Below, in pieces: positions 38,054 to 53,177 of a DNA stretch of 64,000 nt. The stretch is from a virus, in IMG/VR virus record IMGVR_UViG_3300045988_176028. One strand, written 5' to 3'. The notes beneath the pieces were generated by a model. The model saw only the letters and a list, made by a program, of their open reading frames with translations. It ran no database searches and was not told where the DNA came from. A program made the translations under genes and the position numbers. How positions within the stretch are numbered: the stretch's first letter is position 1; every line of letters begins with the position of its first letter.

Positions 38054-40717
38054 TCAGGCGTCATTCCGACTGATGGAACGCTCCACTCCAACGAAGCCAA
38101 CACCCATCATCAGAGCGACGATGGACACTGCGGCGATACCCGCCACATCCACGCCGGTGGCGGCAAGATTATCCTCGCCAGTGGCCGTGACGGTCTTATT
38201 GTCGGCGTCCACCTTATATGTGGTGGTCTTATGAGCCTTCTTATCGGCGGTCTCGACCTTGGACTCGTTCTTCTTCGCGGAAATGGTAGCGACCGTCTGC
38301 GAGGAACCATTATCCTTGCCGGTATCGGTCTTGCCAGTGTCCCCCTTGGAAGTTCCAGTGGATGTCGAACCGTTTGGCTTGTCCGAATCATCCGGAGTGG
38401 AAGGCTTGGAAGAATCATCATCGACCGAGAAACCGGGGTCGACGATATCACCCTCGCCCGGCTTGGTGGCGATGCCGTCAAGAGCGTTCTTCGCATCCGT
38501 CAGAGCGGCCTCGGTCTGCTTCTTGTCGGCCTTGGCCTTGTCCAGCTTCGCGTTCGCGTCGGCCAGCGTCTTGTCGGCGTCGGCCTTAGCGGCCTTGGCC
38601 TTGCCCAAGTTGGCTTGAGCGGTCTTCTGCTCGTCCTGCGCCTTGGACAACGTCTTCTCCGCTTCCGTCAGCTTCTTCTGGGCTTCGGCCAGCTTCGCGT
38701 TCGCGTCGGTGTATCCGTCCAGCTTGGCTTGGGCTTCCTTGACCTGCTTCTTGGCTTCGTCCACTGCGGCCTGAGCCTTGTCCACGTTCGACTGGGCGGT
38801 CTTCACCTGCTGGTTCGCGGAGTCGAATTCGCTCTGGGCTTTCTTGGTAGTGGACTGCTTCTGCTCGTACACGGTCTGCTTCGCGTCGGCCTCGTCCTTC
38901 GCCTGAGCGTAGGTGCTATCGGCGGTCTTACCGGCCTTGACTGCGGCATTGTATGCGTCGAGAGCCTTCTGGTAGGCTTCGTCCTTGGCCTTGGCGGTCT
39001 TGGCCGCTTCGCCGGCGGTCTGCTGTGCGGACTGCGCGCGTTCCTGTAGTTCGGCAAGCTCCTGCTGGGCCTGTTGCGCGGCCTTCTTCGCCTCGTTCGC
39101 CTTGTCGAGAGCCTTCTGGTACGTGTCGGCGGCGGAGTCCAGCGCGTTCTTGTAGGAGAGAATCTGCTGACGGTACTCGTCCACGGAAACGCCACTGGTG
39201 TACAGGTATTTCTGGCTGAAGTTCTGTGCGGCGGTCAGCGAACCTGTGATTGCGAAACCGGTGGTGTCGCAATCCGGGTCGATGATGTTCAGATAGTGTC
39301 CGGTCTGCTCGTAGATGTCCGGATACTTCATGTAGATTTCCACGGCGGTCATGTTGCGCAGTTCAGGATTCTTCTCCGCATACTGGTCGAACACGGCCTT
39401 CTCTTCCGTATACCAGCCGTCATACGGGTTCTCGTAACCCCAAGCGAGGTTCTGGGAGGTTCCAGTGAACACGTGCCCAGTATTCTGAGAATACGTATTG
39501 TAGTCGGCGGCAAGCTGCGCGTCGGCGGTGTCCGCATCGTTGACCGTCCACTCCCGCAGTCCGAGGCTACGGCGAATCTCATTGCCCTTGTCAATCATGT
39601 CGAGAGCATCGAGCATGTTCTGCAAGCTGGTTGCGGAGTTTTCCTCACCAATCTTCACCCAATCCTCGTTCTGATACTTGACGAGCTGGTCGAGGGCGAA
39701 CTGGGTGTCCTCGTTCTTGTAACTGGAGGCAAGCTTCCACTGGTAGAAGCCGATGGAGCCGGACGCCAGCTGCTTGTCCGCGTTGTCGGCGGCGGCTTTC
39801 TTCGAATCCGCGTCGGCTTGAGCGGTGTTGGCGGCCGTGTTCTTCGCGTCCGCGTCCTTCTGCTTCTCGCTGATGCCGTTCTTCGCGTCCGAAGCGTTCT
39901 TGTCGGCGGTGGTCTGCGCGGTGTCGGCGTCGTTCTTCGCGGCTAACGCGGCTTCGAGTTCGGCCTTGAGCTGGCTGATGGTCTTCTGGGATTCGTCGGA
40001 CTTGGCCTTGGCGTCCGAAGCGTTCTTGTCGGCCTTGTCCTTGTCGGATTTGGCGGCGGCTTCGTCCTTCTGAGCGGCGGTCAGACTATCGGCCTTCTTC
40101 TGGGCTTCCTGCTGGGCCTTCTTAACCTGCTGGTTGGCGGATTCCAACTGCTTGGTGGTCTGGTCGAGCTGGCTGTTCGCGTCGGAGAGCGCCTGTTGGG
40201 CTTTCTTCTGGTTTTCCGGATTGGTGGCTTCGCTGGCGTTCTGCCGTGCCTGATTCAGATTCGTCTGAGCCTGATTGACGGTGGTCTGCGCGTTCTGAAC
40301 CTGCTGATTGGCGGCGTCCAGAGTGGTCTGGGCGTTGTCCACCTGAGTCTGGGTCTGGTTGACGGTGGTCTGCGCGCTGTCAACGTTGGTCTGTGCCTGA
40401 TTCAGGTTTGTCTGTGCCTGATTGTCGTTGGCTTGGGCTTCGTCCACCTTGGCCTGTCCGTCGGACACGGGGTCTGACTGTGCGGGGGTCGTGGTGGCCG
40501 TAATGGTATTGTCCGGCGTAGTGGCGGTCTGGGAGGTTGCCTGTGTGGCCTGTGCCACGGTGTCCTGAGTCTGGGATACCGCGTTCTGCGCCTGTTCGAT
40601 AGCGCCGTTCACGTCCGGCTGGATATTGTTGCCGTCATCCGCGAACGCGGTGGCCGGTGCGGCGAGTGTCGCAACCGCCACGGTCGTGGCGATGAGCGTC
40701 TTCTTGACGTTTGCCAA
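38054..40717 (-). CDS. LAXTG-anchored coiled-coil surface protein with central CAP/SCP (PR-1-like) domain
   Basis: TTG start with AAAGGAG RBS. Signal peptide ...ATLAAPATAFA. AQTN/AQTT heptad-like repeats. CAP-like region ending GHYLNIIDPDC. C-terminal LAATG, TM helix and charged tail. Confidence 0.8.
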   Translation of the reverse strand: MANVKKTLIATTVAVATLAAPATAFADDGNNIQPDVNGAIEQAQNAVSQTQDTVAQATQATSQTATTPDNTITATTTPAQSDPVSDGQAKVDEAQANDNQAQTNLNQAQTNVDSAQTTVNQTQTQVDNAQTTLDAANQQVQNAQTTVNQAQTNLNQARQNASEATNPENQKKAQQALSDANSQLDQTTKQLESANQQVKKAQQEAQKKADSLTAAQKDEAAAKSDKDKADKNASDAKAKSDESQKTISQLKAELEAALAAKNDADTAQTTADKNASDAKNGISEKQKDADAKNTAANTAQADADSKKAAADNADKQLASGSIGFYQWKLASSYKNEDTQFALDQLVKYQNEDWVKIGEENSATSLQNMLDALDMIDKGNEIRRSLGLREWTVNDADTADAQLAADYNTYSQNTGHVFTGTSQNLAWGYENPYDGWYTEEKAVFDQYAEKNPELRNMTAVEIYMKYPDIYEQTGHYLNIIDPDCDTTGFAITGSLTAAQNFSQKYLYTSGVSVDEYRQQILSYKNALDSAADTYQKALDKANEAKKAAQQAQQELAELQERAQSAQQTAGEAAKTAKAKDEAYQKALDAYNAAVKAGKTADSTYAQAKDEADAKQTVYEQKQSTTKKAQSEFDSANQQVKTAQSNVDKAQAAVDEAKKQVKEAQAKLDGYTDANAKLAEAQKKLTEAEKTLSKAQDEQKTAQANLGKAKAAKADADKTLADANAKLDKAKADKKQTEAALTDAKNALDGIATKPGEGDIVDPGFSVDDDSSKPSTPDDSDKPNGSTSTGTSKGDTGKTDTGKDNGSSQTVATISAKKNESKVETADKKAHKTTTYKVDADNKTVTATGEDNLAATGVDVAGIAAVSIVALMMGVGFVGVERSISRNDA

Positions 40718-40840
40718 GATTATCTCCTTTGTTTGGTTTCTTTTCCACGTGTGGGGTGGACATTATATTATTTTATATTATCCCCCTTATTGAGGGTTCA
40801 TCCAACTCGCAAGGAAAACCCAAACGAGAGGAAAAGCGCC

Positions 40841-40878
40841 GTGACATTCTCCCCCCGCCTGTGGAGGCGGGGGCTTCC
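40841..40878 (-). ncRNA. 3' terminal hairpin of predicted omega-RNA of TnpB copy 3
   Basis: Minus strand reads GGAAGCCCCCGCC-TCCACA-GGCGGGGGGAGAATGTCAC. Confidence 0.45.
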
Positions 40879-40956
40879 TGCTCAAGAACCCCAGTGGGTT
40901 CAGTATCGACAGGCTATCCCCACATGCCCTGTGGTTCGCACGATTTATGAGTCGTG

Positions 40957-42126
40957 CTACTCGATGATTCTCATTGCCTCATCCCGAATGTTTCGGGCGG
41001 CGTTCACGTCACGGTCATGCAACACTCCGCATGATGGGCACGCCCATTCGCGGATACTTAAATCCTTGACCAGAGGATTCTTGCAACCGCAGTCGTGGCA
41101 TAGTTGGCTGGATGGATACCATTTGTCCACATGAACCAACTGTTTGCCTTGACGGGCGAGCTTGTATTCCAACATGGTGCAGAACATGCCATACCCGTTG
41201 TCCGACGTGCTTTTAGCCAAACCTTTTCTGGCTTTGCGACCATTGGGGAGATAATGTCCCGGATGTTCGTAGTCTGGTTTCGGCTTGGGTTTCTTCATCA
41301 TGCTTTTCATGTTCAGAGTCTCCACGCCGACCATATCGTATGATGCGACAATCCTGTTGGCTTTCTTACGCTGGTAGTCGCGTCTCTGATTGGAGGTCTT
41401 CTCATACAGTCGGCCGACCCGCTTGCACTGTTTACGCCAGTTGGCGGAACCTTTGACCATATGGGAGAGCTTGCGTTGCTCTCTGGCGAGCTTGTCCTGC
41501 ATTTTCCGATAGTATCCCGGATATTCGGCGTGCTCCCCGTCACTGGAAACATACAGGCCGTGAGACGCGTAGTCCAATCCGACAGTCTTCACCGGCTTCA
41601 CTTTTTCGGGTATTTGGGTCTCGTACTCGAAAAGGATTGTCGCGGTGTATCTTCCGGAAGGGCAATGCTCCACGGTGACGGATTTCAGTTTCCAATCGTC
41701 GGGGATGTGCTTGTGTTGGCGTACCGCCAACCATCCGAGCTTGGGTAGTTTCAACCTCCTTGTCTTGTCATCCAATCTGATGTTGCCGTGGGACAGATTC
41801 GTCGTGTATGTCTTCCTGCCCCGACGTTTCGACTTGTATTTCGGAAAACCTGTTTTCCTGTCCTCGAAGAACCTCTTGTACGCCTTCTCCAATGCGAGTT
41901 GCGCGTTGCAAAGAGCGAAGCCATCCACCTCGCGCAGGAACGGATACGTGTCCTTGTACAAGGCTGGGGTGGGATAGCATGACTCCCAAGTGGTCTGATA
42001 GTGGGCGATGCGGGTTTCGAGCATGAGGTTGTATACGAACCTGACGCAACCGATGGTACGGTTTATCCGCCGTGCCTGTTCTTCGGTGGGGTAGGCGCGG
42101 AATCTGACCGCCGTATGGGCTTTCAT
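40957..42126 (-). CDS. tnpB: TnpB (IS605 OrfB family) RNA-guided nuclease
   Basis: 389 aa. RFRAYPTEEQARRINRTIGCVRFVYN N-terminus, VGLDYAS, VGVETLN, CHDCGC...CPSCGV, DRDVNAARNI. Confidence 0.9.
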   Translation of the reverse strand: MKAHTAVRFRAYPTEEQARRINRTIGCVRFVYNLMLETRIAHYQTTWESCYPTPALYKDTYPFLREVDGFALCNAQLALEKAYKRFFEDRKTGFPKYKSKRRGRKTYTTNLSHGNIRLDDKTRRLKLPKLGWLAVRQHKHIPDDWKLKSVTVEHCPSGRYTATILFEYETQIPEKVKPVKTVGLDYASHGLYVSSDGEHAEYPGYYRKMQDKLAREQRKLSHMVKGSANWRKQCKRVGRLYEKTSNQRRDYQRKKANRIVASYDMVGVETLNMKSMMKKPKPKPDYEHPGHYLPNGRKARKGLAKSTSDNGYGMFCTMLEYKLARQGKQLVHVDKWYPSSQLCHDCGCKNPLVKDLSIREWACPSCGVLHDRDVNAARNIRDEAMRIIE

Positions 42127-42156
42127 ACTTATGCCAGTCCTTTCTCGCTTTGGCTT

Positions 42157-42615
42157 TCAGAAGATATCCTCAACCAAAGAAGTCAACGACTTGCTTGTCT
42201 GGTTCAACTCCCAGAAGCCACGTTCAAATTTCTTGGCCAATTCCATGACCTGTTCGACCTTGTCGAGAAGTATCTTGGCGGACTTGTCAACAGCCTTGAA
42301 AGTGGTGATAGGCACACCATCCCGATACATGGGGATTCGGGCAGTCTCCGTGGGGATTCCAGCCGCGCTTCCATTGTCTCCAGCGTATTGCAGTGAGAGA
42401 TTGTAAGTGAGAGAGAAAGTAGCCTCCTTGACGTATCCTTCTTCGCCCCACATGCATAAGGTCATCTTCCAAGAGCGAGAGAAGGAACGTTCGGGATTGC
42501 AGACATGGCTTTTCGTCCAAACGTACTTGCCTTCCTTGGTGTTCCTTTGAAGGTAGGAAAGGTTTTCTCGGTCATTCCTTTTTTCGAACTCTTCGAGAGT
42601 GGTCTGCTTGTTCAT
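42157..42615 (-). CDS. hypothetical protein (152 aa)
   Basis: AAAGGAG RBS. First gene after the promoter at 42647. Confidence 0.55.
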   Translation of the reverse strand: MNKQTTLEEFEKRNDRENLSYLQRNTKEGKYVWTKSHVCNPERSFSRSWKMTLCMWGEEGYVKEATFSLTYNLSLQYAGDNGSAAGIPTETARIPMYRDGVPITTFKAVDKSAKILLDKVEQVMELAKKFERGFWELNQTSKSLTSLVEDIF

Positions 42616-42646
42616 GGGTTTGCTCCTTTTTGATTTTCTGTTTTTG

Positions 42647-42668
42647 TGTGAACGATTTCAGTATAGCA
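42647..42668 (-). promoter_or_regulatory. conserved promoter/leader motif copy
   Basis: Minus strand reads TGCTATACT-GAAATC-GTTCACA. Confidence 0.65.
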
Positions 42669-42685
42669 TAAAACCTTGGAGCAAA

Positions 42686-43363
42686 TCAACCCAAAGAAGC
42701 CAACTCCACCTCAATCCCTGCCAACTCCTCCAACAAACGCTTACGACGAGCCAACAACAGTCGTTTCCTGCGGACGCCATCGAAAACAGGCTGACCGGAA
42801 GCCACATCATGGGAGTTCACCATATTCCTGCCGGTGGGACTCCCATCTCGATTGTTCCCCAACATGGTCAAATCAGCCACGGTCAGCGAACCATTCCGAA
42901 AACTGAACCCGTTCTCGAACATCACATGTTCAAGCCGTGCGATGTTCAACGCTCCGAACTGGGGAACCGTGGTTCCACTACCGTATTTGATACGACGGGA
43001 TTCACGCAGTCGGGCAAGATAATGCAGAAACTGGGCCAAAGTCAGTTTGGTTAGTTTAGCCAACGAGCCGACGCCAATCGAATACAGTCGAATACGGAAA
43101 TCGGCATCCACTACTCCCTCACGATATAAGACGGAATCCTCCACCGGTCGAAAATCCATTTCGTTCTTCCGTAGACGGTTTCCGACGATACGGGCGCTGT
43201 CGGAGCCAAAGGAACCGACGAACTGCTCTTCGGTCAACGAGGTAATATCCCCGATGATGCGGAGTTTCCTTTTCATCTTGTTGACTCGGAACTTGTCACA
43301 GATTTGACCCCGCGCGTTGGTGAAGAGTTTTTCTATCGGGTCTAGGACGGTTAGCTCGCTCAT
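42686..43363 (-). CDS. hypothetical protein (225 aa)
   Basis: Second gene of the leftward operon from the promoter at 44072. No family recognised. Confidence 0.55.
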   Translation of the reverse strand: MSELTVLDPIEKLFTNARGQICDKFRVNKMKRKLRIIGDITSLTEEQFVGSFGSDSARIVGNRLRKNEMDFRPVEDSVLYREGVVDADFRIRLYSIGVGSLAKLTKLTLAQFLHYLARLRESRRIKYGSGTTVPQFGALNIARLEHVMFENGFSFRNGSLTVADLTMLGNNRDGSPTGRNMVNSHDVASGQPVFDGVRRKRLLLARRKRLLEELAGIEVELASLG

Positions 43364-43432
43364 GGTTCTTCTTCTCTCGTTTTTTGCATGCGGTAGAGGG
43401 TTCCAAGATTGCGGCCGGAATCCTCTTTAATA

Positions 43433-44032
43433 TCACAGATTCGCACTGTCGATGTTGTCGGCAAGGCAATCAGACAATCGGGCGTTTCCGCCTTGGGTCA
43501 GACGATAATGCTTGAGGAATCTGATTGCATCGTTGACTGTTACCAGTTGAGATGGCTTTGCGTAGTCCTTGTCCAGCGTGCGTTCCAATTCGCAGGTCTT
43601 GCATTCTCCTGCATCTCCAAGGCAGTCCTTGCAGAGTGTGCTACCACAGGTGTCGCACGTGTGCCTACAGGTTTTGTCGATGTATTTGCCGCAGTGTTCG
43701 CAACGTTTCCAGCAGTGGGCGCATTCCAAGGTGCCCTCGCAGTCTTCGCAGCTTGCGGCGTCATCGTCGCAGCAGTATGCGTCGCACTTGTCGCAGGAGT
43801 TCAGGCAATCTTTGCAGAACGTGTTGCCGCAGATGTTGCATCGTTCCGCGTATTTGTCGCAGACGATGTTGTCGCACTTGTAGCACAGGTGGCAGTGGTC
43901 GCAGCAGAAGACGCCTTCGCAGTTGGAGCACTGGTATAGGCAGTCTTCGCAATAGTTTTTGTGGCAGTGGTCGCAGGTGCCGTTGGCTATTGGATTGTTG
44001 AGGACGCAGTAGGAGCATTCGCAGTTGCTCAT
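43433..44032 (-). CDS. extremely cysteine-rich (CxxC-array) protein, 199 aa
   Basis: AAGGAG RBS precedes ATG 44032. More than 40 Cys in the first 150 aa form repeated C-x2-C/C-x2-H pairs. The C-terminal ~45 aa are Cys-poor. Confidence 0.6.
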   Translation of the reverse strand: MSNCECSYCVLNNPIANGTCDHCHKNYCEDCLYQCSNCEGVFCCDHCHLCYKCDNIVCDKYAERCNICGNTFCKDCLNSCDKCDAYCCDDDAASCEDCEGTLECAHCWKRCEHCGKYIDKTCRHTCDTCGSTLCKDCLGDAGECKTCELERTLDKDYAKPSQLVTVNDAIRFLKHYRLTQGGNARLSDCLADNIDSANL

Positions 44033-44071
44033 TTTTTCTCCTTGTTGGGTGTGGATTTCGACCCTTGTTTG

Positions 44072-44093
44072 TGTGGACGATTCCAGCATACCA
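44072..44093 (-). promoter_or_regulatory. conserved promoter/leader motif copy (TATGCT -10)
   Basis: Minus strand reads TGGTATGCT-GGAATC-GTCCACA. Confidence 0.6.
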
Positions 44094-44138
44094 CATAAAT
44101 AAGAGAATTAAGACAGCATGCCAAACAAGTCCCATCAA

Positions 44139-44162
44139 TGATATATATTGGACATGTCCACA
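44139..44162 (+). promoter_or_regulatory. conserved promoter/leader motif copy upstream of tracrRNA/cas9
   Basis: TGATATATATT-GGACAT-GTCCACA. Confidence 0.55.
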
Positions 44163-44228
44163 AATAAAAAACCAAGCGCTGTTCGAAAAACGGAAACGAC
44201 ACGCCGGGGTTGCCAGAAGAACACTGTG

Positions 44229-44237
44229 TGTTATAGT
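44229..44237 (+). promoter_or_regulatory. extended -10 promoter of predicted tracrRNA
   Basis: TGTTATAGT followed by GGG, as in the motif promoters. The downstream box is replaced by the anti-repeat. Confidence 0.55.
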
Positions 44238-44243
44238 GGGAAC

Positions 44244-44331
44244 CACGGCATATAGTTTAAACAAGTCCGGTGACAGACCGGAATTGACCGTAGAGCGGCG
44301 ATAGGACGCAAGTCCCAATCGCCGCTTTTTT
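44244..44331 (+). ncRNA. tracrRNA: predicted tracrRNA
   Basis: Anti-repeat CACGGCATATAGTTTAAAC (44244..44262) pairs over 17 bp, with one bulge, to GTTTGAATATATGTCGT of the minus-strand repeat. AAG and hairpin TCCGG-TGACAGA-CCGGA follow. Terminator GCGGCGAT-N15-ATCGCCGC plus T6 ends at 44331. The 5' end is inferred. Confidence 0.6.
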
Positions 44332-44360
44332 AATGCAGTGCGGAAAGAGAACAACAGACC

Positions 44361-47300
44361 TTGACCGCAAAAACCAATATCCGCTATCGCGTGGGAGCTG
44401 ACGTAGGACTCAACAGTCTAGGATTCTCGGCAATCCAACTCGACGCCAACGGCAACCCAATCACACTACTCAAAACCCTCAGCTACATTCACGACGGCGG
44501 AGTAGACCCAACCCAAAACAAGTCCGGCACCACCCGCAAGGCCATGGCCGGAATCGCCCGACGTACCCGCAACATGCGCAAACGCCGCCGCCACCGTCTC
44601 AACCAACTCGACCGTCAGCTCTACCAACTGGGATATCCGGTGGACGAAGTGCCGGAAAGCGAACACGGACTCTACGAATACTGGAACGTCCGTTCCGCAT
44701 TGGCGACCGCCTACGTCCCCGACAAGGACAAGCGTGACCGGATGATGGTCATGGCTATCCGACATATCGCACGCCATCGCGGTTGGCGCAACTCCTATAG
44801 TCGGGTCGAAACCCTGTTCGAGGACGTGGAGCCGTCCGACCAGTACAAGGATTTGAAACAGCGAGTGGAGACCCGTCTTGGAATGAAACTAGACGAGGAT
44901 ATGACCCCGGCGCAACTCGTCGCATTGACGCTTTCAGACCGTGATGAGAACTTCATGAGGGTTCGTACCAGCACAAAATACGGTGAGGGTGTTCTGCCAA
45001 GCCGTCTCATGCAGTCCGACAATGCGCGTGAACTCCGACGCATCTTCACCGTCCAGCAAGTGCCCGAGGACGTTTGGAAGCCCATCCTGCGTACCGTGTT
45101 CCACTGCGCATCCCCCAAGGGTTCCGCAGAGAAGCATGTCGGAACAGACCCGCTCGACCAGACCCAGAAGAGAGCGTTGAAGGCCAGCATCGCCTTCCAG
45201 AAGTACCGTATCCTCAACGTCATCACCAACCTGCGTATCCGACGCAAAGGCGAAGCATCCCGACCGTTGACCGTCAACGAGAAACAGGATGTATACGAAC
45301 TGCTCACCACCGCCAAGGAAGACTTGGAATGGTTGGACGTGTGCGCCGTGCTTGACATCGAACGCAACGAACTCAAAGGCGTCGGCACCCTCACCCATGA
45401 CGGGGAGGAAAGAATCGGTAACAAGCCACCCGTCTTGGACACTGTCATCCGACTCCACGGCATCAAAAACACCAAGCTCCGCAAGATGATGGACGCATGG
45501 TGGAACACGGCCACCGAGACCGAACAGGCCGCGATGATTCGACTCCTGTCCAACACGGTTGACTTGGACAAGGTGCGCGACCTCATCGAATACGCCTCCC
45601 CCATCGAATTCATCGACGGGTTGGACGAAGACCTGCTCACCCCGTTGGACTCCATCAGTCTTCCAGTCGGACGTGCCGCCTACTCCGAAAAAACCCTCAC
45701 CCGACTGTCCAAACGCATGTTGGAAACGGAAGATGATTTGCATTATGCGATTCGCCACGAGTTCAACGTGCCCGCAGACTGGAAGCTTCCGGTTCCACCT
45801 GTTCAGGAGCCGACCGGCAATCCTGCCGTTGACCGAGTGTTGAAAGCGTTCAACCGTTTCCTCAGCCAGTGCGAACAACAGTATGGCATTCCGGAAAGCA
45901 TCGCCATCGAAACCACGAAGGAATCGTTCTCGTCCATCGCGTTCGGACGCACGCTCGACTATGAGCGCCGTCAACGTCGGGACAAGGACAATCAGACGCG
46001 TGCCGCAATCCGTGAGGATATGAGGAAGCAACTGTCCAACGGCGGAAGCTTCAAAGTCCACGACTACGACATTCGCCGTTGGGAAATCGTCCAATCGCAG
46101 AACAACACATGCCTGTACTGTGGTGCGACCAGTCCACGATTCAGTTTCGATAAGTCGGAACTCGACCATATCGTTCCCCGTCGTGGTGTCGGTTCGGACA
46201 GCAAACGCACCAACATGGCCGCAGTATGCCCCGAATGCAATGCCAACAAGTCGAACATTCCGTTCGCCGTCTGGGTGCATTCCGACTATGCGAAAGCGCA
46301 CGGCATCACCATGAATGATGTCATCGCACGAGTGAACCAGCTGATGTTCCCACCATCCATGAACCGCAAGCAGGTCAGTCAGGTGAAAAAGGCCATCATC
46401 AGCCGACTCAAGCAGACCGAACAGGACGAGCCGTTGGACAATCGTTCCATCGAATCCGTGGGCTGGATGGCCGACGAACTCCACCGCCGACTCGATGGAC
46501 GATACGCCAACAAAACGGTGAAAGTGTCCACGTTCCCCGGCTCCATCACCTATGAGGCGCGACGCGCTTCCGGCATCGACGGGCAAATCCACTTCATCGG
46601 CGCACAGTGGAAGACCCGACTCGACCGCCGACACCATGCGGTTGACGCTTCGGTCATCGCCATGATGAACCAGAGTGTCGCTCTCCGTCTTGCCGAACGC
46701 CACTATCTACGCGAATCCCAACGCCTGTGCGGGACCCCGTTCGGACAGGCGGACTGGAAGCAGTATCCGAATGAGAACACTCCCGGCTACGACCAATACC
46801 AGCAATGGAGCGGACAGATGAAGAATCTGCTCCACCTGTTGAACAAGGGTTTGGACGAGGACACCATTCCGGTCGTTCGGAGCCGCCGCCTCCGCTTGGG
46901 CAACAGCACGGCGCATGATGCGACGGTGAAACCGTTGCAATACGTGCGACTGGGAGACGCCATGCCGACCAGTCTCATCGACCATGCGCTCACCCCGCAA
47001 GTGTGGAAGGCATTGACCGGATTGTCGGATTATGACCCTCAGAATGGTCTGCCCGCTAATCCGAAACGTGTCATCACAGCCTTGGGTGAAGTATGCCATG
47101 CGAAGGATGAAATCGGTTTCCTTCCGGGCAACAATGCCCAATTGTTCGTCAACGGTGGAGCCGCCGATATTGGCGGAACCATCCATCATGCCCGTATCTA
47201 CCGTTGCGAACAGGTGTTGAAGAACGGGAAACGCAAGACGTTCTATGGCATGGTGCGCGTGTTCCAATGCGATTTGATGAAACGCAGGAAGAACACCGAC

Positions 47301-47687
47301 CTGTTCCGAACCCCGTTACATCCCGCCGACGTGTCCATCCGGTATGCGGACGGCAAGGTCAGGGACGCCATCCGACAGGGACACGCAACCTGCATCGCAC
47401 GACTCACCGTCAACGATGAAATCAAGTTGACACCTGAGATGATGAGGGACATGTGTCCTGAATATGCGAACATGTTCCACACAGATTCCGGCGTCGAACG
47501 ACGATTCATCGTGGCCGGCTTCCCCTCCCCTATCCAGTTCAGACTAGTTCCCTCCGTCATTGCAGAAGAAGGATTAAGTAAGATGGTTGAACAAGGTTTG
47601 GAGGTTCCCCCCAAGGTCGAGAAGATGTTCAAACTGCACACCTTCGTTCCAGTGGTCAATAAGATTGGACATGTTTTAGAGCAGTAA
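44361..47687 (+). CDS. cas9: Cas9, compact type II-C-like (1108 aa)
   Basis: RuvC-I VGADVGLNSLGF, Arg-rich bridge RRTRNMRKRRRHRL, HNH ELDHIVPRRG...CPECNANKSN, RuvC-III RRHHAVDASVIAM. TTG start. Confidence 0.92.
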   Translation: MTAKTNIRYRVGADVGLNSLGFSAIQLDANGNPITLLKTLSYIHDGGVDPTQNKSGTTRKAMAGIARRTRNMRKRRRHRLNQLDRQLYQLGYPVDEVPESEHGLYEYWNVRSALATAYVPDKDKRDRMMVMAIRHIARHRGWRNSYSRVETLFEDVEPSDQYKDLKQRVETRLGMKLDEDMTPAQLVALTLSDRDENFMRVRTSTKYGEGVLPSRLMQSDNARELRRIFTVQQVPEDVWKPILRTVFHCASPKGSAEKHVGTDPLDQTQKRALKASIAFQKYRILNVITNLRIRRKGEASRPLTVNEKQDVYELLTTAKEDLEWLDVCAVLDIERNELKGVGTLTHDGEERIGNKPPVLDTVIRLHGIKNTKLRKMMDAWWNTATETEQAAMIRLLSNTVDLDKVRDLIEYASPIEFIDGLDEDLLTPLDSISLPVGRAAYSEKTLTRLSKRMLETEDDLHYAIRHEFNVPADWKLPVPPVQEPTGNPAVDRVLKAFNRFLSQCEQQYGIPESIAIETTKESFSSIAFGRTLDYERRQRRDKDNQTRAAIREDMRKQLSNGGSFKVHDYDIRRWEIVQSQNNTCLYCGATSPRFSFDKSELDHIVPRRGVGSDSKRTNMAAVCPECNANKSNIPFAVWVHSDYAKAHGITMNDVIARVNQLMFPPSMNRKQVSQVKKAIISRLKQTEQDEPLDNRSIESVGWMADELHRRLDGRYANKTVKVSTFPGSITYEARRASGIDGQIHFIGAQWKTRLDRRHHAVDASVIAMMNQSVALRLAERHYLRESQRLCGTPFGQADWKQYPNENTPGYDQYQQWSGQMKNLLHLLNKGLDEDTIPVVRSRRLRLGNSTAHDATVKPLQYVRLGDAMPTSLIDHALTPQVWKALTGLSDYDPQNGLPANPKRVITALGEVCHAKDEIGFLPGNNAQLFVNGGAADIGGTIHHARIYRCEQVLKNGKRKTFYGMVRVFQCDLMKRRKNTDLFRTPLHPADVSIRYADGKVRDAIRQGHATCIARLTVNDEIKLTPEMMRDMCPEYANMFHTDSGVERRFIVAGFPSPIQFRLVPSVIAEEGLSKMVEQGLEVPPKVEKMFKLHTFVPVVNKIGHVLEQ

Positions 47688-47777: not shown

Positions 47778-48668
47778 ATGGCAAAAGGGTGGCGAGTCAT
47801 CGACTGCACCGCAATGACCGGCAGACTGACCTACAAGCGCGGACAACTCGTCGTGGAACACCACGATACGGAGACGCGGATACCGTTGGCCGATACGGCG
47901 GTGCTGCTGCTCGGTATACAAACAACCGTCTCCACAGCACTATTGCAGCAATTGGCGGTCTTCGACGTGGAAGTGCTCATCTGCCAATGGAATCAGACAC
48001 CAATCGCGGCAATGCAATCATGGAACAAACCCAACACCCGTTCCGCCGCCCGTCAGAACGCACAACAGGAAATGAGCCTACCGGCAAGAAAAGCCGCATG
48101 GCAGAAAATCATACGAGCGAAAATACTAGGACAATCCCACGTACTCGACAAACTCAACTTGGACGGAGGGGAACTCTTAAGAAGTCTAGCCGTCCAAGTC
48201 CACTCCGGCGACCCGAACAACATCGAAGGACAGGCGGCACGCGAATACTGGCATCACATGTTCTCTGAAGAACAATTCCGCCGATTCCCCGGATATGGCG
48301 AAGGGCACAACGCTCAACTCGATTACGCGTACACGGTACTGCGTGGATTCCTGATTAAGTCCATCTGCACAGCGGGACTCTCCCCCACCATCGGCATACA
48401 TCACCATTCAGCCAGCAACTATTTCTGTCTGGCAGACGATTTGATAGAACCGTTCCGACCGGCCATCGACTACCAGATAAGCCAACTACCGGACGGACCG
48501 TTGGACTCGGAAATGAAACAGCAGATAGTGCTGTCCGTCAACAGCCAATTCAACCCAAAAGAACTAACCATCCCATCACTGGTGGACGAATTTTGTGGAC
48601 AATACGCGCAATACTGCGAAGGCTGGCTGGACAAACTACCCGTCCCCGTCTTCGGAAAAAGGCGCTAA
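47778..48668 (+). CDS. cas1: Cas1 integrase (type II)
   Basis: 296 aa in the position after cas9. The N-terminal beta-domain and C-terminal helical domain pattern is typical of Cas1. AGGAGG RBS. Confidence 0.88.
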   Translation: MAKGWRVIDCTAMTGRLTYKRGQLVVEHHDTETRIPLADTAVLLLGIQTTVSTALLQQLAVFDVEVLICQWNQTPIAAMQSWNKPNTRSAARQNAQQEMSLPARKAAWQKIIRAKILGQSHVLDKLNLDGGELLRSLAVQVHSGDPNNIEGQAAREYWHHMFSEEQFRRFPGYGEGHNAQLDYAYTVLRGFLIKSICTAGLSPTIGIHHHSASNYFCLADDLIEPFRPAIDYQISQLPDGPLDSEMKQQIVLSVNSQFNPKELTIPSLVDEFCGQYAQYCEGWLDKLPVPVFGKRR

Positions 48669-48670
48669 AA

Positions 48671-49012
48671 ATGAAGAGAGATAAGGATAACGGCATGTGG
48701 ACGCTGGTCATGTACGACCTACCCATTACAACGAGAGAGGATGCGGGAGCCGCGAACAGATTCAACCATCTACTCTCTGATTTAGGTTTCGTTCGAGTGC
48801 AATATTCCGTCTATGCAAGATATACCCCCACCCAATCAGGCGGTCGTTCTGCGTTAAAGTATATTCAAGCCGGACTACCTCCCCACGGCAACGTGCGAGT
48901 ACTCTGCGTAACGGACAATCAATGGTCTGATTCACTGAAGTACATCGATAAAAAACAGCAGACCACAGACGAACAGCCGGGGTTACTGACGCTTTTTGAC
49001 GACGAAGAATAG
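48671..49012 (+). CDS. cas2: Cas2
   Basis: ATG 48671 lies 3 nt after the cas1 stop. MWTLVMYDLPITT...VQYSVYAR is the ferredoxin-like Cas2 core. Confidence 0.85.
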   Translation: MKRDKDNGMWTLVMYDLPITTREDAGAANRFNHLLSDLGFVRVQYSVYARYTPTQSGGRSALKYIQAGLPPHGNVRVLCVTDNQWSDSLKYIDKKQQTTDEQPGLLTLFDDEE

Positions 49013-49051
49013 TTTAAAAACGTTGATATGAAGCCTTTTGCCCAAACTCGT

Positions 49052-49716
49052 AGTTTGAGCAAAAGGTAATACGACATATATTCAAACCTGTTCGCCATAT
49101 GCTATCGTAAGAGTGAGTTTGAGCAAAAGGTAATACGACATATATTCAAACTGATGTCGCACGCGGATTAACGCTCTGGAGTTTGAGCAAAAGGTAATAC
49201 GACATATATTCAAACCACAAGCACACTGAATGTACGTCGTTGAAGTTTGAGCAAAAGGTAATACGACATATATTCAAACTTCAAAAATGGCTATTTTCCA
49301 ACGTTTTAGTTTGAGCAAAAGGTAATACGACATATATTCAAACTGTCCAGTGATTTCCCTCTCCTCACCGGAGTTTGAGCAAAAGGTAATACGACATATA
49401 TTCAAACTAAAAATGAAAGGATTGAAGAAAACATAAGTTTGATTAAAAGGCAATACAACATATATTCAAACCAAAACGGGAACAGGCATTGAACGGTGGG
49501 AGTTTGGGCAAAAGGTAATACGACATACATTCAAACTGCGAGTTTCCCTTCAGTGTGATTAAAAGGCAATACGACATATATTCAAACTGAAGCATTCAGT
49601 GCTTACGCGTCCGAAAAGTTTGAGCAAAAGGCAATACGACATATATTCAAATCAGGCTGCATATTTTCGTCAAAATCGACAAGTATAAATAAGGAAAATA
49701 CGACATATATTCAAAC
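49052..49716. CRISPR. CRISPR array: 10 full 36-bp repeats plus 1 degenerate terminal repeat, 10 spacers
   Basis: The + strand repeat is AGTTTGAGCAAAAGGTAATACGACATATATTCAAAC, starting at 49052, 49116, 49180, 49244, 49308, 49372, 49436, 49501, 49552, 49617 and ~49680. Spacers are 28-29 bp except one of 15 bp (49537..49551). Repeats 1-6 are identical and 7-11 are progressively mutated. The anti-repeat suggests minus-strand crRNA. Confidence 0.95.
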
Positions 49717-49797
49717 AAAAATTCAAACAAAATACCTAACAAAGAATAAGCCGGTGTTTCGCCACTCCCACCGGCGAGGAGCTGTTCACACAAAGAC

Positions 49798-49847
49798 GCG
49801 GAGTAGGAGAAGGGTGGAGAGAAAAACACCCGTAGACTCCGCTTTTT
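49798..49847 (+). terminator. rho-independent terminator separating the array from the tRNA block
   Basis: GCGGAGT...(inner GGGTG/CACCC)...ACTCCGC followed by TTTTTGTTT. Confidence 0.6.
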
Positions 49848-50053
49848 GTTTGGCGTTTGACATGGCTTGGTTGTTTCCCATCAGTGAGTTCATGTCGTGA
49901 ACACTGGCATGTATGCGTGAGTCAAGAGGGTGCAAGGCATACGGCTTGCTGACAGTCCTTCATGGATTTCAGGATTGTCGTCCATCGCGCATGTGAGAGT
50001 CATGCCATGGATTGTCCCACGAGCTTTAGGGGTATAAAAAGTGTGGGACTTTG

Positions 50054-50125
50054 TGCGGGAGACGAGATTCGAACTCGCGATACTTGCTTGGAGGGCAAGG
50101 GTGATGACCTTTTCACTACTCCCGC
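50054..50125 (-). tRNA. tRNA-Gly(UCC)-like, atypical C33
   Basis: Hand-folded cloverleaf, 72 nt. Acceptor GCGGGAG/CTCCCGC, T-loop TTCGAAT, anticodon loop CCTCCAA. No encoded CCA. Confidence 0.7.
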
Positions 50126-50244
50126 AATAGGAGGGGATGGATTGTGTTTGCGGGCTGGAAAGCACTACATGCAGAGAAAAAATGTTTACGACCATTCCAA
50201 ACTATTATGGGATGGAAGACTCGCAATCAGAAACCCATTCCCAG

Positions 50245-50332
50245 CGGAGTCGGAGGGATTCGAACCCTCGAACCGTATGAAACGGTTAACACCTTAGCAG
50301 GGTGCCCCTATCGGCCACTCAGGCACGACTCC
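50245..50332 (-). tRNA. tRNA-Ser(GCU)
   Basis: 88 nt with a long variable arm AACCG-TTTCATA-CGGTT. Anticodon loop CTGCTAA, T-arm GAGGG-TTCGAAT-CCCTC. Confidence 0.8.
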
Positions 50333-50371
50333 GAAGTTTCGACACGCCAAAAACAGCCGGTCGAAACTTAG

Positions 50372-50442
50372 CTCCCCATGATGGACTCGAACCACCTCTA
50401 AAGGTTCCAAAGACCCGTGTGCTGCCATTACACTAATGGGGA
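50372..50442 (-). tRNA. tRNA-Gln(UUG)
   Basis: 71 nt. U1-A72 and G73, anticodon loop CTTTGGA, T-loop TTCGAGT. One mismatch at the 27-43 pair. Confidence 0.65.
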
Positions 50443-50474
50443 ATGTGCAGACCGTTTTGACGGCCCGCGAATAA

Positions 50475-51320
50475 TTATTTGGATTTTGAAATCAGCTTGT
50501 CAATGTCCGCGCCCAACTGCCTTAACTGGGCGAAAGAGTTGGCGACGTTGTTTTGCGCCGTTTCCTCTCTCTGCTGAGCGGCTTCCATCAGCTTCTTGCT
50601 GTTCGCATCCAATTCGGCGGCATGCTGTTCAGCCTTCTTGGTTCGGAGGTCGATTTCCTGTGACGCCTTGTCCAAACGGTTGACTGCGTCAGCTTCCGCC
50701 TTGCTGATAATCTGTTCGGCTTGTTTCTTGGCCGCGTCCAACTGGATGGCAACCTTATCGTCGGTTTCCTTTTTCAGTTTGGCGCATTCCTGTTCAAGCT
50801 TCTGCTTCTTATCCTGTGCGGCGGTCATCATCTGTCTGGTGGTTTCCGTCGCGGAGTCGAGCCGCTTCTGGGATTCATCCTTGGCCTGTTGGAGAATCTG
50901 TTCGGCTTGCGTGCGGGCCTGTTCCAGCTCCTCACGTTTCTTCGACTCGTAAGTGTTTTTCAACGTTTGGAATTCTTTGCCGAGGCTGGTGCCTAATTCC
51001 TGCATCGGGTTTTCCGACGCTTGACGGGCGTCCTGCAAGTCGGCGTTCAACCGTTCAATCTGCTGGCGGAGGGATTCAGCTTCCTGCTCCCGTTTGCCGA
51101 GTTCGGATTGACGCTTGTCCAAGACCATGTTTTTTTCCGTTAACTGGCGTTGCAGATTCCAAATCTGTGTTTCCAACCCGTTCACGTACTGTTCAACGGA
51201 ATCCTTGCGATAACCGTTGAATCCGGTGGGGAGGTTGAGTGGTTGTACCTGTGGCTGGGTCATTCCTTCCACGGTGAGAGCGTGGGAGGAGATGACCCGT
51301 GTTTCATCAGACATGGTCAT
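50475..51320 (-). CDS. DivIVA-domain coiled-coil protein (281 aa)
   Basis: GAAGGA RBS precedes ATG 51320 (the track ORF extends spuriously over tRNAs). FNGYRKDSVEQYVNGLETQIWNL resembles the DivIVA N-terminal motif. The rest is K/E/Q-rich coiled coil. Confidence 0.65.
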   Translation of the reverse strand: MTMSDETRVISSHALTVEGMTQPQVQPLNLPTGFNGYRKDSVEQYVNGLETQIWNLQRQLTEKNMVLDKRQSELGKREQEAESLRQQIERLNADLQDARQASENPMQELGTSLGKEFQTLKNTYESKKREELEQARTQAEQILQQAKDESQKRLDSATETTRQMMTAAQDKKQKLEQECAKLKKETDDKVAIQLDAAKKQAEQIISKAEADAVNRLDKASQEIDLRTKKAEQHAAELDANSKKLMEAAQQREETAQNNVANSFAQLRQLGADIDKLISKSK

Positions 51321-51355
51321 TTTGAGTTCCTTCTTTTCTGGTTGAAAAACACGAG

Positions 51356-51428
51356 AGCCTAGAGCGGGGGTCGAACCCGCGACCTTCTGTTCCGGAGACA
51401 GACGCTCTATCCACTGAGCTATCAAGGC
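51356..51428 (-). tRNA. tRNA-Arg(CCG)
   Basis: 73 nt. D-arm GCTC-AGTGGATA-GAGC, anticodon loop CTCCGGA, T-arm GCGGG-TTCGACC-CCCGC. One U-U mismatch in the acceptor stem. Confidence 0.75.
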
Positions 51429-51485
51429 GATGGGGCGAAACCTATGGGGAATCGCCACTGTAAAGGAAGAACCATTCATGGTTCG

Positions 51486-51568
51486 TGCTTCGGGAGGGAA
51501 TCGAACCCTCACGTCAATATGACAAAGCTTTTTGAGAGCTTCGCGTTTACCTGTTTCGCCACCGAAGC
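51486..51568 (-). tRNA. tRNA-Leu(CAA)
   Basis: 83 nt with a long variable arm. Anticodon loop CTCAAAA, T-arm GAGGG-TTCGATT-CCCTC. Confidence 0.8.
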
Positions 51569-51686
51569 GGGATGAGCCTCCGCAGAGGCTCAGCAGACCG
51601 TTCCCGCGACTGGGCGGGTCGGCTGAAAACTGGAACCGCCATGAGACGGCTCCGAAGCCTTCTCGAACAACCTGTAAGAGAAGTAG

Positions 51687-51757
51687 TATGTCACGCTGGA
51701 ATCGAACCAACATCTACGGTTTTGGAGACCGTGGCTCTACCGTTGAGCTAGTGACAT
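51687..51757 (-). tRNA. tRNA-Trp(CCA)
   Basis: 71 nt. A1-U72, anticodon loop CTCCAAA, T-loop TTCGATT. Confidence 0.75.
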
Positions 51758-52022
51758 ATGGGGTGGGCTACCAACGTAGACGCCACCCTCTCGTTGTCCT
51801 GTAGTTAGCGTCCAAGTCCAACTCGATAGACGCGGCATGGCGGGTTGGATTTTACCGCCAACGGCAAGGTCGTGGGCTGCTAAGTACCCCGTTTCACCGT
51901 TCTTCCCCTTCGGTCATCAACCACCTGATTAAGGCAGGGAAACTCTTATCCTCCACAAGACCATGTAGGATTATTCGAGCAATGCCATCAGTTTCACGGA
52001 CAGCTACCTCCATGAAACCTAG

Positions 52023-52096
52023 CACCCAAGGTTGGAGTCGAACCAACGACGTCCGGTTTAGGAAACCGGCGCTCTATTCCGCTGAGCTACAAGGGT
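52023..52096 (-). tRNA. tRNA-Arg(CCU)-like with two U-U mismatches in the acceptor stem
   Basis: 74 nt. TAGCTCAGCGGAATAGAGC D-arm, anticodon loop TTCCTAA, T-arm GTTGG-TTCGACT-CCAAC. Acceptor ACCCTTG/CTTGGGT. Confidence 0.6.
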
Positions 52097-52316
52097 GTAT
52101 GTCTCCGTTCCGCGAGGACACCCGCAACGCGTCTTCCGGATTGGAGTCATTCACATCAGCCGTTCGCTACTTACCATTGTTGCGGGGCAATGGCTTTCTC
52201 TAATGGGATGATGGTGTTTTACGCGCATTCCACGCGGACGCTTTTAATTGCCCATCCAATACGACGAGCCACAGGATTACACTCCCGATTTCCCGCAGTT
52301 ACGCCAACTGCGGTCG

Positions 52317-52389
52317 TGCCCCCCGTGGGATTCGAACCCACAACCCACGACTTAAAAGGACGCTGCTCTAACCATTGAGCTAGAGGGGC
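52317..52389 (-). tRNA. tRNA-Lys(UUU)
   Basis: 73 nt. Anticodon loop CTTTTAA, T-arm GTGGG-TTCGAAT-CCCAC, acceptor GCCCCTC/GGGGGGC. Confidence 0.75.
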
Positions 52390-52459
52390 GGAACAGGAGG
52401 TGAAGGAACGAAAACCCACCTCCCGCTTGGATTAGTTAAAGGAGAACCATCAAGGTTCG

Positions 52460-52543
52460 TGCTCCGAGAGAGATTTGAACTCTCACACCTTTTCAGGTAA
52501 AGCATTTTGGGTGCTTCGCGTCTACCGATTTCGCCATCAGAGC
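52460..52543 (-). tRNA. tRNA-Leu(CAA)-like, atypical C33
   Basis: 84 nt with a long variable arm. Anticodon loop CCCAAAA, T-loop TTCAAAT. It has the same 3' flank, CGAACC, as the other Leu tRNA. Confidence 0.65.
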
Positions 52544-52808
52544 GTCGCGCGATTGAGGGACGTGCGTTTTCGTTCTTACAGAACGACCCATTGATTTTCG
52601 TACCACCCTCCCCGCTTACAAATCAACAAAAGTCAGAGATTGGAGGAAACTGATTTTTTGTTTACAAAGTTTTTCCTTCAAGTTTGGAGAGTCTGTTTTG
52701 CAGGAGTCGCTTAGCACGCACATCAGTTTCCTCTATTTAGAGTTTGGATAAAAGCCCGTAAGGCAATTATCCAAACATTGTTTTGAATACGGTATGCATT
52801 CAAAATCG

Positions 52809-53177
52809 TGGAGCCGGAGGGAATCGAACCCTCGTCCTTGAAAACGTTGATGATGTTTTCTACATGTTTAGCCATCTCATTTATATATGTTGAAAGTTCC
52901 AGTCGAAGAGGCACCCCGGAACAGTTTTGCAACTCAGTCATGAAACGATGAACAGTTGCCGTTCACCGAGTTTTTGCTGTCCTTTCTTTTTCAGAATCGC
53001 CTTACAGCAAATCAGTGACCCTGTTCTTCCTTCACCGTGTTTCAGGCGGCGAGCTGGAAGTTACGCGAAGAATTCGTCTTGGCGTTTATTGTTTGACATG
53101 GATTGATGACGGTTGTCCACGTCAGCCTCCGACATGCTTGCATTATCTTGATTTTCAAGTCGAAACCTGTCGGCCCC
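52809..53177 (-). ncRNA. ssrA: tmRNA (SsrA), tag AKTNSSRNFQLAA
   Basis: 5' end GGGGCCGACAGGTTTCGAC. 3' end GAGGG-TTCGATT-CCCTC-CGGCTCC-A. The acceptor stem has a G3-U70 pair. Internal frame GCC AAG ACG AAT TCT TCG CGT AAC TTC CAG CTC GCC GCC TGA lies at 53083..53042. Confidence 0.85.

Follow-up and report, generated by a model that had tools for sequence, protein, structure and literature searches.

Among described systems, those closest to the locus studied here are the type II-C CRISPR (clusters of regularly interspaced short palindromic repeats) systems of Bifidobacterium. In B. bombi, B. longum and B. pseudolongum, the gene of the trans-activating CRISPR RNA (tracrRNA) has been described 5' of cas9 and on the same strand (PMC4521832, PMC7284854). 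We consider a stretch of 64,000 nucleotides (nt) from the IMG/VR record IMGVR_UViG_3300045988_176028, called the window in what follows, in which the element at 44242..44331, on the plus strand, is the predicted tracrRNA gene of such a system. The window locus reads tracrRNA - cas9 - cas1 - cas2 - array, with all cas genes on the plus strand; it shares with the Bifidobacterium loci the place and strand of the tracrRNA, the order cas9-cas1-cas2-array, 36-nt repeats, a nexus followed by terminal hairpins, and the genus. It differs from them in sequence and in dimensions: the window Cas9 is ~48 % identical to theirs, the repeat (GTTTGAATATATG...) and the tracrRNA are unrelated in sequence, the RNA is ~88 nt long versus 108-109 nt, the repeat has no TGATAGACT box, and the gap between tracrRNA and cas9 is 29 nt, versus ~35 to 150 nt to the start codon (57-172 nt if counted to the Tyr codon of RuvC-I) in the sampled loci.

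Other systems resemble this one in part. The Cas9 proteins of Corynebacterium diphtheriae (CdCas9; guide structure 6JOO, PMC6488586) and Actinomyces naeslundii (4OGC) belong to the same clade, at ~40 % identity to the window Cas9. The guide of CdCas9 presents a duplex, stem-loop 1, a single-stranded linker and stem-loop 2 in the order predicted here, with stem-loop 1 in the matching position (PMC6488586), and in Corynebacterium loci 10-25 nt separate the tracrRNA terminator from the cas9 start; stem-loop 1 has 17 nt here versus 24 nt, and the linker is AUUGACCGUAG here versus GAAUGCUCC in the clade. In Neisseria meningitidis and Campylobacter jejuni (PMC3737331, PMC12477760), array and cas operon are antisense to each other, as the pairing indicates here, and the acquisition leader adjoins cas2, at the transcriptionally downstream end. 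Their repeats embed a promoter, unlike those of the window lineage, which has lost the corresponding extended -10 box. The Neisseria tracrRNA is not known to lie immediately 5' of the cas9 start.

The tracr-L of Streptococcus pyogenes (bioRxiv 10.1101/2020.05.21.102756) likewise links tracrRNA and cas9 in cis, upstream of cas9, perhaps with two tandem promoters. There, the tracrRNA is divergent from cas9, and the link is a natural single-guide RNA (sgRNA) that represses a promoter; here, the proposed link is read-through of a terminator. A search for self-targeting, for a small CRISPR-associated RNA (scaRNA) or for a tracr-L found no spacer or pseudo-spacer match of at least 11 nt to 44000..44400, hence no guide-like match to the promoter region, and a hypothetical long form of the tracrRNA has no sgRNA-like fold. 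In IscB systems, the scaffold omega-RNA lies immediately 5' of the nuclease reading frame, on the same strand, and one transcription unit can yield both; the omega-RNA carries the guide itself, and there is no CRISPR array or separate CRISPR RNA (crRNA).

The predicted parts of the element, and the genes that follow it, are:

44210..44237, plus strand: tracrRNA promoter, with -35 TTGCCA, a 16-nt spacer and extended -10 TGtTATAGT (44229..44237)
44242..44331, plus strand: predicted tracrRNA, ~88-90 nt, its 5' end placed from the -10 box (A44242-A44245), its 3' end at the U-tract
44244..44262, plus strand: anti-repeat CACGGCATATAGTTTAAAC, pairing partner of nt 1-17 in the minus-read repeat
44263..44282, plus strand: AAG (44263..44265) and stem-loop 1, hairpin TCCGGTGACAGACCGGA (44266..44282), equivalent of the nexus
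44283..44293, plus strand: single-stranded linker ATTGACCGTAG, invariant in all relatives
44294..44331, plus strand: stem-loop 2, predicted intrinsic terminator, stem from 44295, with an 11-bp outer stem, a 4-bp inner stem and U6 (T6 at 44326..44331)
44332..44360, plus strand: gap of 29 nt, with GGAAAGAG, similar to a Shine-Dalgarno (SD) sequence, at 44342..44349
44361..47687, plus strand: cas9, 1108 amino acids, TTG start, type II-C, AnaCas9/CdCas9 clade
47778..48668, plus strand: cas1 (type II), TIGR03639 at 233 bits
48671..49012, plus strand: cas2, 113 amino acids from ATG 48671, TIGR01573
49012..49051, no strand assigned: leader, with a degenerate inverted copy of the repeat (49012..49048) and the conserved motif AACGTTGATATGAAGC
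49052..49716, probably transcribed from the minus strand, toward cas2: CRISPR array with 11 repeats of 36 nt and, between them, 10 spacers, nine of 28-29 nt and one of 15 nt

A short earlier note, the original prediction, had proposed a tracrRNA at this place, and all its coordinates (anti-repeat, AAG, hairpin, terminator, 29-nt gap and TTG) were verified on the sequence. The promoter has 10/12 sigma-70 matches with the TG present, and is the sole plus-strand site from 43300 to the CRISPR array; its segment TGTTATAGTGG is invariant among relatives, despite a diverging -35 region. A 92-nt RNA taken from this place has a minimum free energy of -37.2 kcal/mol (z = -5.85) and folds into stem-loop 1 and a composite terminator, which alone reaches -23.6 kcal/mol and is followed by U6. 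The linker ATTGACCGTAG sits where the wider clade has the conserved linker GAATGCTCC. A covariance model (R1) gives a single strong match in the window, the tracrRNA, at 121 bits, the model being built from this same sequence; it matches 0 of 62 related loci, the lineage being too diverged for a joint model. The Rfam scan found no tracrRNA match at the gathering threshold or at E<=10, which carries little weight, the Rfam model not covering this clade.

Read on the minus strand, repeat 1 (49052..49087) is GTTTGAATATATGTCGTATTACCTTTTGCTCAAACT, and its nt 1-17 pair with 44246..44262 in a duplex of 17 base pairs (bp), including two G-U pairs and one bulged G, which reproduces exactly the geometry first proposed. 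The 3' end of the anti-repeat faces the 5' end of the repeat, and pairing runs from repeat position 1, as in a tracrRNA. RNAduplex gives -19.1 kcal/mol for the minus reading of the repeat against the tracrRNA, versus -8.3 for the plus reading, and co-folding in both orientations gives a free-energy difference (ddG) of -10.8 (minus) versus -1.3 (plus). Complementarity alone is evidence beyond chance only weakly: an RNAduplex scan of the whole window, in 45-nt segments, does not single out the site, with chance sites down to -25 kcal/mol. This non-discriminating scan was replaced by a Smith-Waterman pairing scan with a check of context, in which the anti-repeat reaches 28, a score equalled or exceeded at about seven other sites in 128 kb. 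The chance expectation is ~0.02 for the 326-nt intergenic strand 5' of cas9, and the sites of rival score all lie inside long reading frames with no T-run following, except the leader element at 49012..49048.

The decisive evidence is comparative. It comes from contigs whose Cas9 is 91, 83 or 81 % identical to that of the window (L001-L005; overall range 81-95 %), and from 19 human-gut metagenome contigs that share a 22-nt core of the candidate tracrRNA. In 24 contigs, the tracrRNA region takes eleven sequence variants. The extended -10 TGTTATAGT, the start region GGGAACCACGGCA, stem-loop 1, the linker, the terminator, the gap and the TTG are nearly invariant, and the variants are 94 % identical outside the anti-repeat. 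In L005, stem-loop 1 has a double change from G-C to A-U that retains the pair, and changes in the terminator are limited to the inner stem and loop. The anti-repeat is the variable part of the RNA, and it follows the repeat of the same contig:

Window and L098: minus-read repeat GTTTGAATATATGTCGT (GTTTGAAT..GTCGT), anti-repeat ACGGCATATAGTTTAAAC
L106: repeat as in the window, anti-repeat ACGACATATAG..., G-U changed to A-U
L099 and L102: minus-read repeat GTTTGGATATATGCCGT (GTTTGGAT..GCCGT), anti-repeat ...AGTCTAAAC, A-U changed to G-C with both sides changed
L004: minus-read repeat GTTCGGATATATGCCGT (GTTCGGAT..GCCGT), anti-repeat ...AGTTCGAAC
L001: minus-read repeat GATTGGAAGACTGCCGT, anti-repeat ACGGCAAGCTTCAATC

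Changes that compensate those of the cognate repeats occur in four independent variants (V1b, V2, V3 and V4) on a constant scaffold, and the cognate duplexes reach -17.9 to -24.1 kcal/mol in the minus reading, versus -2.9 to -8.3 in the plus reading. It is because of these energies and this co-variation that the element is identified as a tracrRNA; with a promoter-like site of its own, a scaffold and a strong Rho-independent terminator that are predicted and conserved as well, the first claim of the original prediction stands.

Since the anti-repeat resembles the plus-strand repeat in sequence, its partner would be a minus-strand transcript of the array. With no other transcript can it pair, and if the pairing is functional, the crRNAs must be antisense to cas9-cas1-cas2, and the array read toward cas2. 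This was the second claim, made with the remark that such a layout is reported for several II-C loci. The claim is well supported by the sequences, and the remark is correct: arrays of this kind are described in Neisseria and Campylobacter (PMC3737331), and the antisense layout is therefore not new.

The same arrangement is found across the Cas9 clade. A scan of one genome per species collected 80 related II-C loci (Bifidobacteriaceae, Corynebacterium, Actinomycetaceae, Propionibacteriaceae and others), in which anti-repeats were searched for in the 420 nt before the RuvC-I motif. For most of the loci that bear an array, the best pairing site is on the plus strand, 100-160 nt 5' of this motif, and pairs with positions 1-17 of the minus-read repeat. 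An alignment of the RNA modules gives the order anti-repeat, (U)AAG, stem-loop 1, linker (GAAUGCUCC in most) and terminator, which is that of the crystallised CdCas9 sgRNA (PMC6488586). An extended -10 box, TGnTAnnnT, typically within TGATAGACT or TGATATACT, ends the minus-read repeat in 58 of 67 arrays, and two more arrays are inverted, with the box on the other strand; repeat-embedded promoters are known from Neisseria and Campylobacter (PMC3737331, PMC12477760). Because the related loci and the published Bifidobacterium loci show it, an antisense array with a co-directional tracrRNA 5' of cas9 is, to judge from these sequences, standard for the clade. The window locus is a sequence-divergent representative of a known system type, and its layout is normal for this branch of Cas9.

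The polarity of spacer acquisition fits as well with what is known. Contig L001 and an IMG/VR contig with the same repeat, L086, have 10 cas2-distal spacers in common and differ at the cas2 end, where 13 spacers are private to L086 and one to L001. New spacers thus enter beside cas2, which is the 3' end of the precursor crRNA (pre-crRNA) on the minus reading, and Neisseria acquires spacers at the same end (PMC12477760). In the window, repeats degenerate toward 49716, the cas2-distal end, and the flank beyond it is conserved between lineages.

The original prediction saw no promoter in the gap between U-tract and cas9, and neither do a promoter scan and a hexamer search: from the anti-repeat to the TTG the sigma-70 scan calls no site, and 44263..44360 is devoid of TAnnnT hexamers. 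The TTG at 44361 is the earliest possible start codon of the Cas9 reading frame, and is conserved in L004 and L005. The sequence of the gap is invariant in 20 contigs, except for A/C at 44332, and an 8-nt deletion in L004 moves GGAAAGGA nearer to the conserved TTG. Among 36 related loci with a recognisable terminator, the distance from the U-tract to the RuvC-I Tyr codon is at most 60 nt in 18, and at most 45 nt in 10; half of these loci match the window in compactness or exceed it. After the terminator, such compact loci hold just an SD sequence and a start codon, as in GCAAAAGGAGCAGGCTATG of the Corynebacterium locus L028: about half of the actinobacterial II-C loci have room only for a ribosome binding site between the tracrRNA terminator and cas9. 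In compact loci, that of the window included, it is plausible that transcription of cas9 must pass the terminator hairpin. Because 44263..44360 contains no promoter-like site, and because the gap is short and invariant, we infer, on good grounds and for about half of the related loci, that cas9 is expressed by read-through. The literature searched contains no report of read-through of a tracrRNA terminator, or of co-transcription of a tracrRNA with cas9.

The explanation that best joins a tracrRNA gene, an antisense array and cas9 expressed by read-through, to which we give a probability of about 0.7, is the following. The extended -10 promoter at 44229..44237 would start an RNA of ~88 nt that opens with the anti-repeat, 17-19 nt long; next would come AAG, stem-loop 1, the linker and stem-loop 2, the last doubling as intrinsic terminator. 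The anti-repeat would pair with nt 1-17 of the minus-read repeat, the array being read toward cas2 to yield crRNAs made of a spacer followed by GUUUGAAUAU, and Cas9 would bind the assembled pair. The TTG of cas9, 29 nt past the U-tract and preceded by a modest SD sequence, would have no promoter of its own, and the fraction of polymerases that pass the terminator would make the cas9-cas1-cas2 messenger RNA (mRNA). Most transcripts would thus end as tracrRNA, and a minority would be mRNA with the tracrRNA as 5' leader.

Several observations weigh against this explanation. At -23.6 kcal/mol and with U6, the terminator is strong, and read-through may be low. Some Bifidobacterium relatives have gaps of 140-170 nt with -10-like boxes, and these probably are cas9 promoters of their own; dependence on read-through is therefore typical of compact loci, and not universal in the clade. 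Because the predicted tracrRNA starts almost at the anti-repeat, the duplex has only 17 bp, a short substrate for RNase III, and sits at the extreme 5' end of the RNA, which is a poor fit. On the side of the array, the window repeat ends in TGCTCAAACT where the family has TGATAGACT, and contains no TGnTAnnnT; the repeats of L001 and L004, whose 3' ends read TTCTACT and CCGAAAC, have also lost the embedded -10 box. The original prediction had overlooked this loss. The sigma-70 scan finds no minus-strand promoter for the array, and the plus-strand promoter-like pattern TTGAGC-16-TATATT occurs in each well-preserved repeat of the window (49055..49647). The side of the protospacer adjacent motif (PAM) was tried as an independent proof of orientation and rejected, as one protospacer cannot define a PAM. 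Lastly, two conserved features lie upstream of the tracrRNA promoter:

44142..44159, plus strand (strand uncertain): TATAnT box with perfect palindrome GGACATGTCC, TATATT at 44144..44149, 88 nt 5' of the tracrRNA -10
44198..44206, plus strand: block GACACGCCG, just 5' of the -35 hexamer, invariant in two alignments (A1 and A4) while its flanks diverge

In L001, L004 and L005 this box and its palindrome are conserved amid diverging surroundings, and the L004 version of the box, CTATAGTGGAAC, nearly copies the tracrRNA promoter. Box and palindrome may be a second promoter or operator, for a long transcript or for a divergent gene, and the block GACACGCCG may be the site of a regulator. It is thus conceivable, and we hold it as a tentative possibility, that the cas9 mRNA crosses the terminator but starts at this separate and possibly regulated promoter; in that case the 5' leader of cas9 would contain the tracrRNA promoter, and the two RNAs would be only loosely coupled. 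Such an account draws on the conservation just mentioned and on the invariant GACACGCCG between the box and the tracrRNA promoter, but the box is not called by the sigma-70 scan, has no -35, and could equally serve the divergent cysteine-rich gene of the minus strand. An antiterminator in the long transcript was considered and rejected: the predicted fold keeps the terminator, and GACACGCCG pairs in it only with the start of the anti-repeat. The statement of the original prediction that read-through would couple tracrRNA and cas9 is its weaker part, given that the box could feed cas9 separately, and strict coupling of cas9 to the tracrRNA promoter is uncertain. We consider it unlikely that cas9 has its own promoter hidden in the tracrRNA gene or in the 29-nt gap, as a degenerate actinobacterial -10 or in the descending arm of the terminator, which would make read-through unneeded. 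Actinobacterial promoters are poorly defined, a TTTAAT overlaps the U-tract (44329..44334), and L028 has TTGAAT-17-TACATT inside the 3' part of its tracrRNA; yet, besides the missing TAnnnT hexamer, this TTTAAT, the one weakly -10-like string there, does not have the critical A in second position and is TTTCAT in most population variants, and a -35/-10 pair plus a leader containing an SD sequence would not fit into so short a gap.

The remaining alternatives concern the RNA partners themselves. If the array were transcribed on the plus strand, whether from the TTGAGC-16-TATATT pattern or through read-through out of cas2, the element 5' of cas9 would not be a working tracrRNA. To the nine matches of this pattern in the repeats can be added a terminator-like plus-strand hairpin past the array, near 49795..49840, and a leader arm (49034..49048) complementary to the start of the plus-read repeat. 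The pattern, however, is missing from the repeats of L001, L004 and L102, and in our view it arises from the repeat sequence as a by-product, one that could still produce RNA antisense to the crRNAs; the tracrRNA forms only a poor duplex with the plus-read repeat, behind the leader arm comes the array and no scaffold, and 58 of 67 relatives embed their promoter on the opposite strand, all of which makes plus-strand transcription very improbable. Nor do we find it credible, or only slightly, that the true anti-repeat is the minus-strand inverted repeat copy at 49012..49048, and that it forms with the last repeat a natural RNA of the single-guide kind. This element, which overlaps the cas2 stop codon and carries AACGTTGATATGAAGC in all lineages, has the top pairing score in the window (35 versus 28). 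Its 15-nt arm CCTTTTGCCCAAACT (49034..49048) is palindromic with the first 15 nt of repeat 1, perfectly so in L098; in L106, a change from GAGC to GACC in repeat 1 is matched by GCTC to GGTC in the arm, so that the palindrome is kept; and on a minus-strand RNA the last repeat and the element fold into a long hairpin of the repeat:anti-repeat type, similar to that of an sgRNA. But no AAG, nexus or linker follows it, and its tail is antisense to the coding sequence of cas2, for which reason it was also rejected as a second tracrRNA; its complementarity is far shorter in L001, L004 and L005, and it cannot explain a conserved, co-varying RNA 5' of cas9. The original prediction had named a better anti-repeat elsewhere on the replicon as the finding that would speak against it: the leader element is better in score, not in substance, and is most likely a part of the leader used in spacer integration, or a structure at the 3' end of the pre-crRNA. 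There is, finally, the thought that the repeat match arose by chance, the element being no more than an attenuator of cas9 or a structured leader at its 5' end. Several sites of the window pair with the repeat equally well by score or energy, but the co-variation in four independent variants effectively refutes it, and the architecture recurs clade-wide in the module order of the CdCas9 sgRNA (PMC6488586).

In CdCas9, the protein binds the base of the stem-loop 2 hairpin (PMC6488586). One may speculate, and we think it a long shot, that stem-loop 2 is an attenuator that senses Cas9, the output of cas9 being set by the pool of unoccupied tracrRNA. Free Cas9, loading on the nascent tracrRNA, would stabilise termination; or else Cas9 would block the translation of its own mRNA when bound to the tracrRNA leader, 11 nt from the SD sequence. 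If true, this would be a cis-acting autoregulatory loop common to compact actinobacterial II-C loci, and the length of the U-tract could tune it. That length varies from T5 to T7 among otherwise identical contigs (L093, L096, L098, L107 and L109 versus 44326..44331 of the window), a variation that may be a real tuning of termination, or noise of low-coverage assembly.

Returning to plain read-through, the ratio of tracrRNA to Cas9 could be set by the efficiency of the terminator, of which we found no statement in the literature searched; if confirmed, this would be a tidy regulatory detail and not a new principle. The pairing also yields a ready guide design for an uncharacterised Cas9 that is widespread in a commensal of the human gut: nt 1-17 of the minus-read repeat, a loop and 44244..44331, that is, a predicted sgRNA GUUUGAAUAUAUGUCGU-GAAA-ACGGCAUAUAGUUUAAAC...UUUU. 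It would fix, in addition, the orientation of the array, which is needed for reading spacers and predicting the PAM.

As for the promoter of the pre-crRNA, there are two weak guesses, neither of which the sigma-70 scan calls. One is a TATACT found in the middle of the repeat in L001 and L004, and in the window only in the terminal degenerate repeat (49681..49716); the other, from reading the sequence, is

49743..49748, minus strand: candidate -10 TATTCT, directed toward the array from the conserved flank at its distal end

The spacers gave few matches. Compared with a phage collection, 27 spacers had none. In scans of IMG/VR, the only protospacer is that of spacer 2 of L086 (1909..1936), in contigs L087-L090, perfect or at 26/28, with flanks ccatcggcaaggcca on the left and caagcaggtcaagga on the right in the plus reading; three of these four contigs come from the sample of L086. 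Three spacers in L001 (10024..10429) and L086 (3444..3851) are versions of a common sequence (CCCCAnnnCATsGTGTCyTTsArG), which hints that one site was sampled repeatedly in targets that were diverging. The 15-nt spacer TGCGAGTTTCCCTTC at 49537..49551 lies between two slightly degenerate repeats and has no target of at least 11 nt within the window; at the matching old end, L001 has a spacer of 21 nt.

The genes agree with a type II-C system: cas9, cas1 and cas2 stand beside the array, with no csn2 or cas4, and cas1 and cas2 are the sole open reading frames (ORFs) from cas9 to the array. The product of cas9 scores 193 bits against TIGR01865 and contains the Pfam domains Cas9_a, RuvC_III, HNH, Cas9_b_hairpin, Cas9_Topo and Cas9_C; its top PDB matches are 4OGC and 6JOO (E 1e-194 to 1e-210). 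Cas1 is an exact match to WP_217730527.1 of Bifidobacterium adolescentis. Because of this match and that of the neighbouring TnpB to the same species, B. adolescentis is identified as the host of the locus. In B. adolescentis, the Cas9 of this locus has the accession WP_217730526.1. The 90 % cluster of the Cas9, with ~2000 member sequences, includes a B. adolescentis protein, and the same locus is present in many human-gut metagenome contigs. Beyond that cluster, the closest named Cas9 proteins are those of other Bifidobacterium species, at ~48 % identity; in the scan of one genome per species, the best Cas9 match is 49 %, and the B. adolescentis lineage is not among the matches.

Upstream of cas9, on the minus strand, 38054..44089 holds four ORFs of 218 (cysteine-rich), 225, 152 and 887 amino acids. 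The cysteine-rich ORF is divergent from cas9, and at its longest extends to 44089, where the non-coding region begins. None of the four has a Pfam match, and those of 218 and 225 amino acids have no NCBIfam match either; they are syntenic with cas9 in L001-L003, and other genes take their place in L004 and L005. The TnpB, of the IS200/IS605 family (a family of RNA-guided endonucleases), has 389 amino acids and is encoded at 40957..42126 on the minus strand, 2 kb 5' of cas9; identical proteins are found in B. adolescentis and B. longum.

On the other side of the array, a small ORF at 49788..49894 on the minus strand encodes MNSLMGNNQAMSNAKQKAESTGVFLSTLLLLRVFV, with a hydrophobic tail, and between it and the array lies a hairpin with a T-rich tail (49750..49776, minus strand). 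The flank that holds both is entirely conserved in L001 and L004. Nine transfer RNA (tRNA) genes and a transfer-messenger RNA (tmRNA) gene are clustered immediately 3' of the array, at 50054..53177 on the minus strand.

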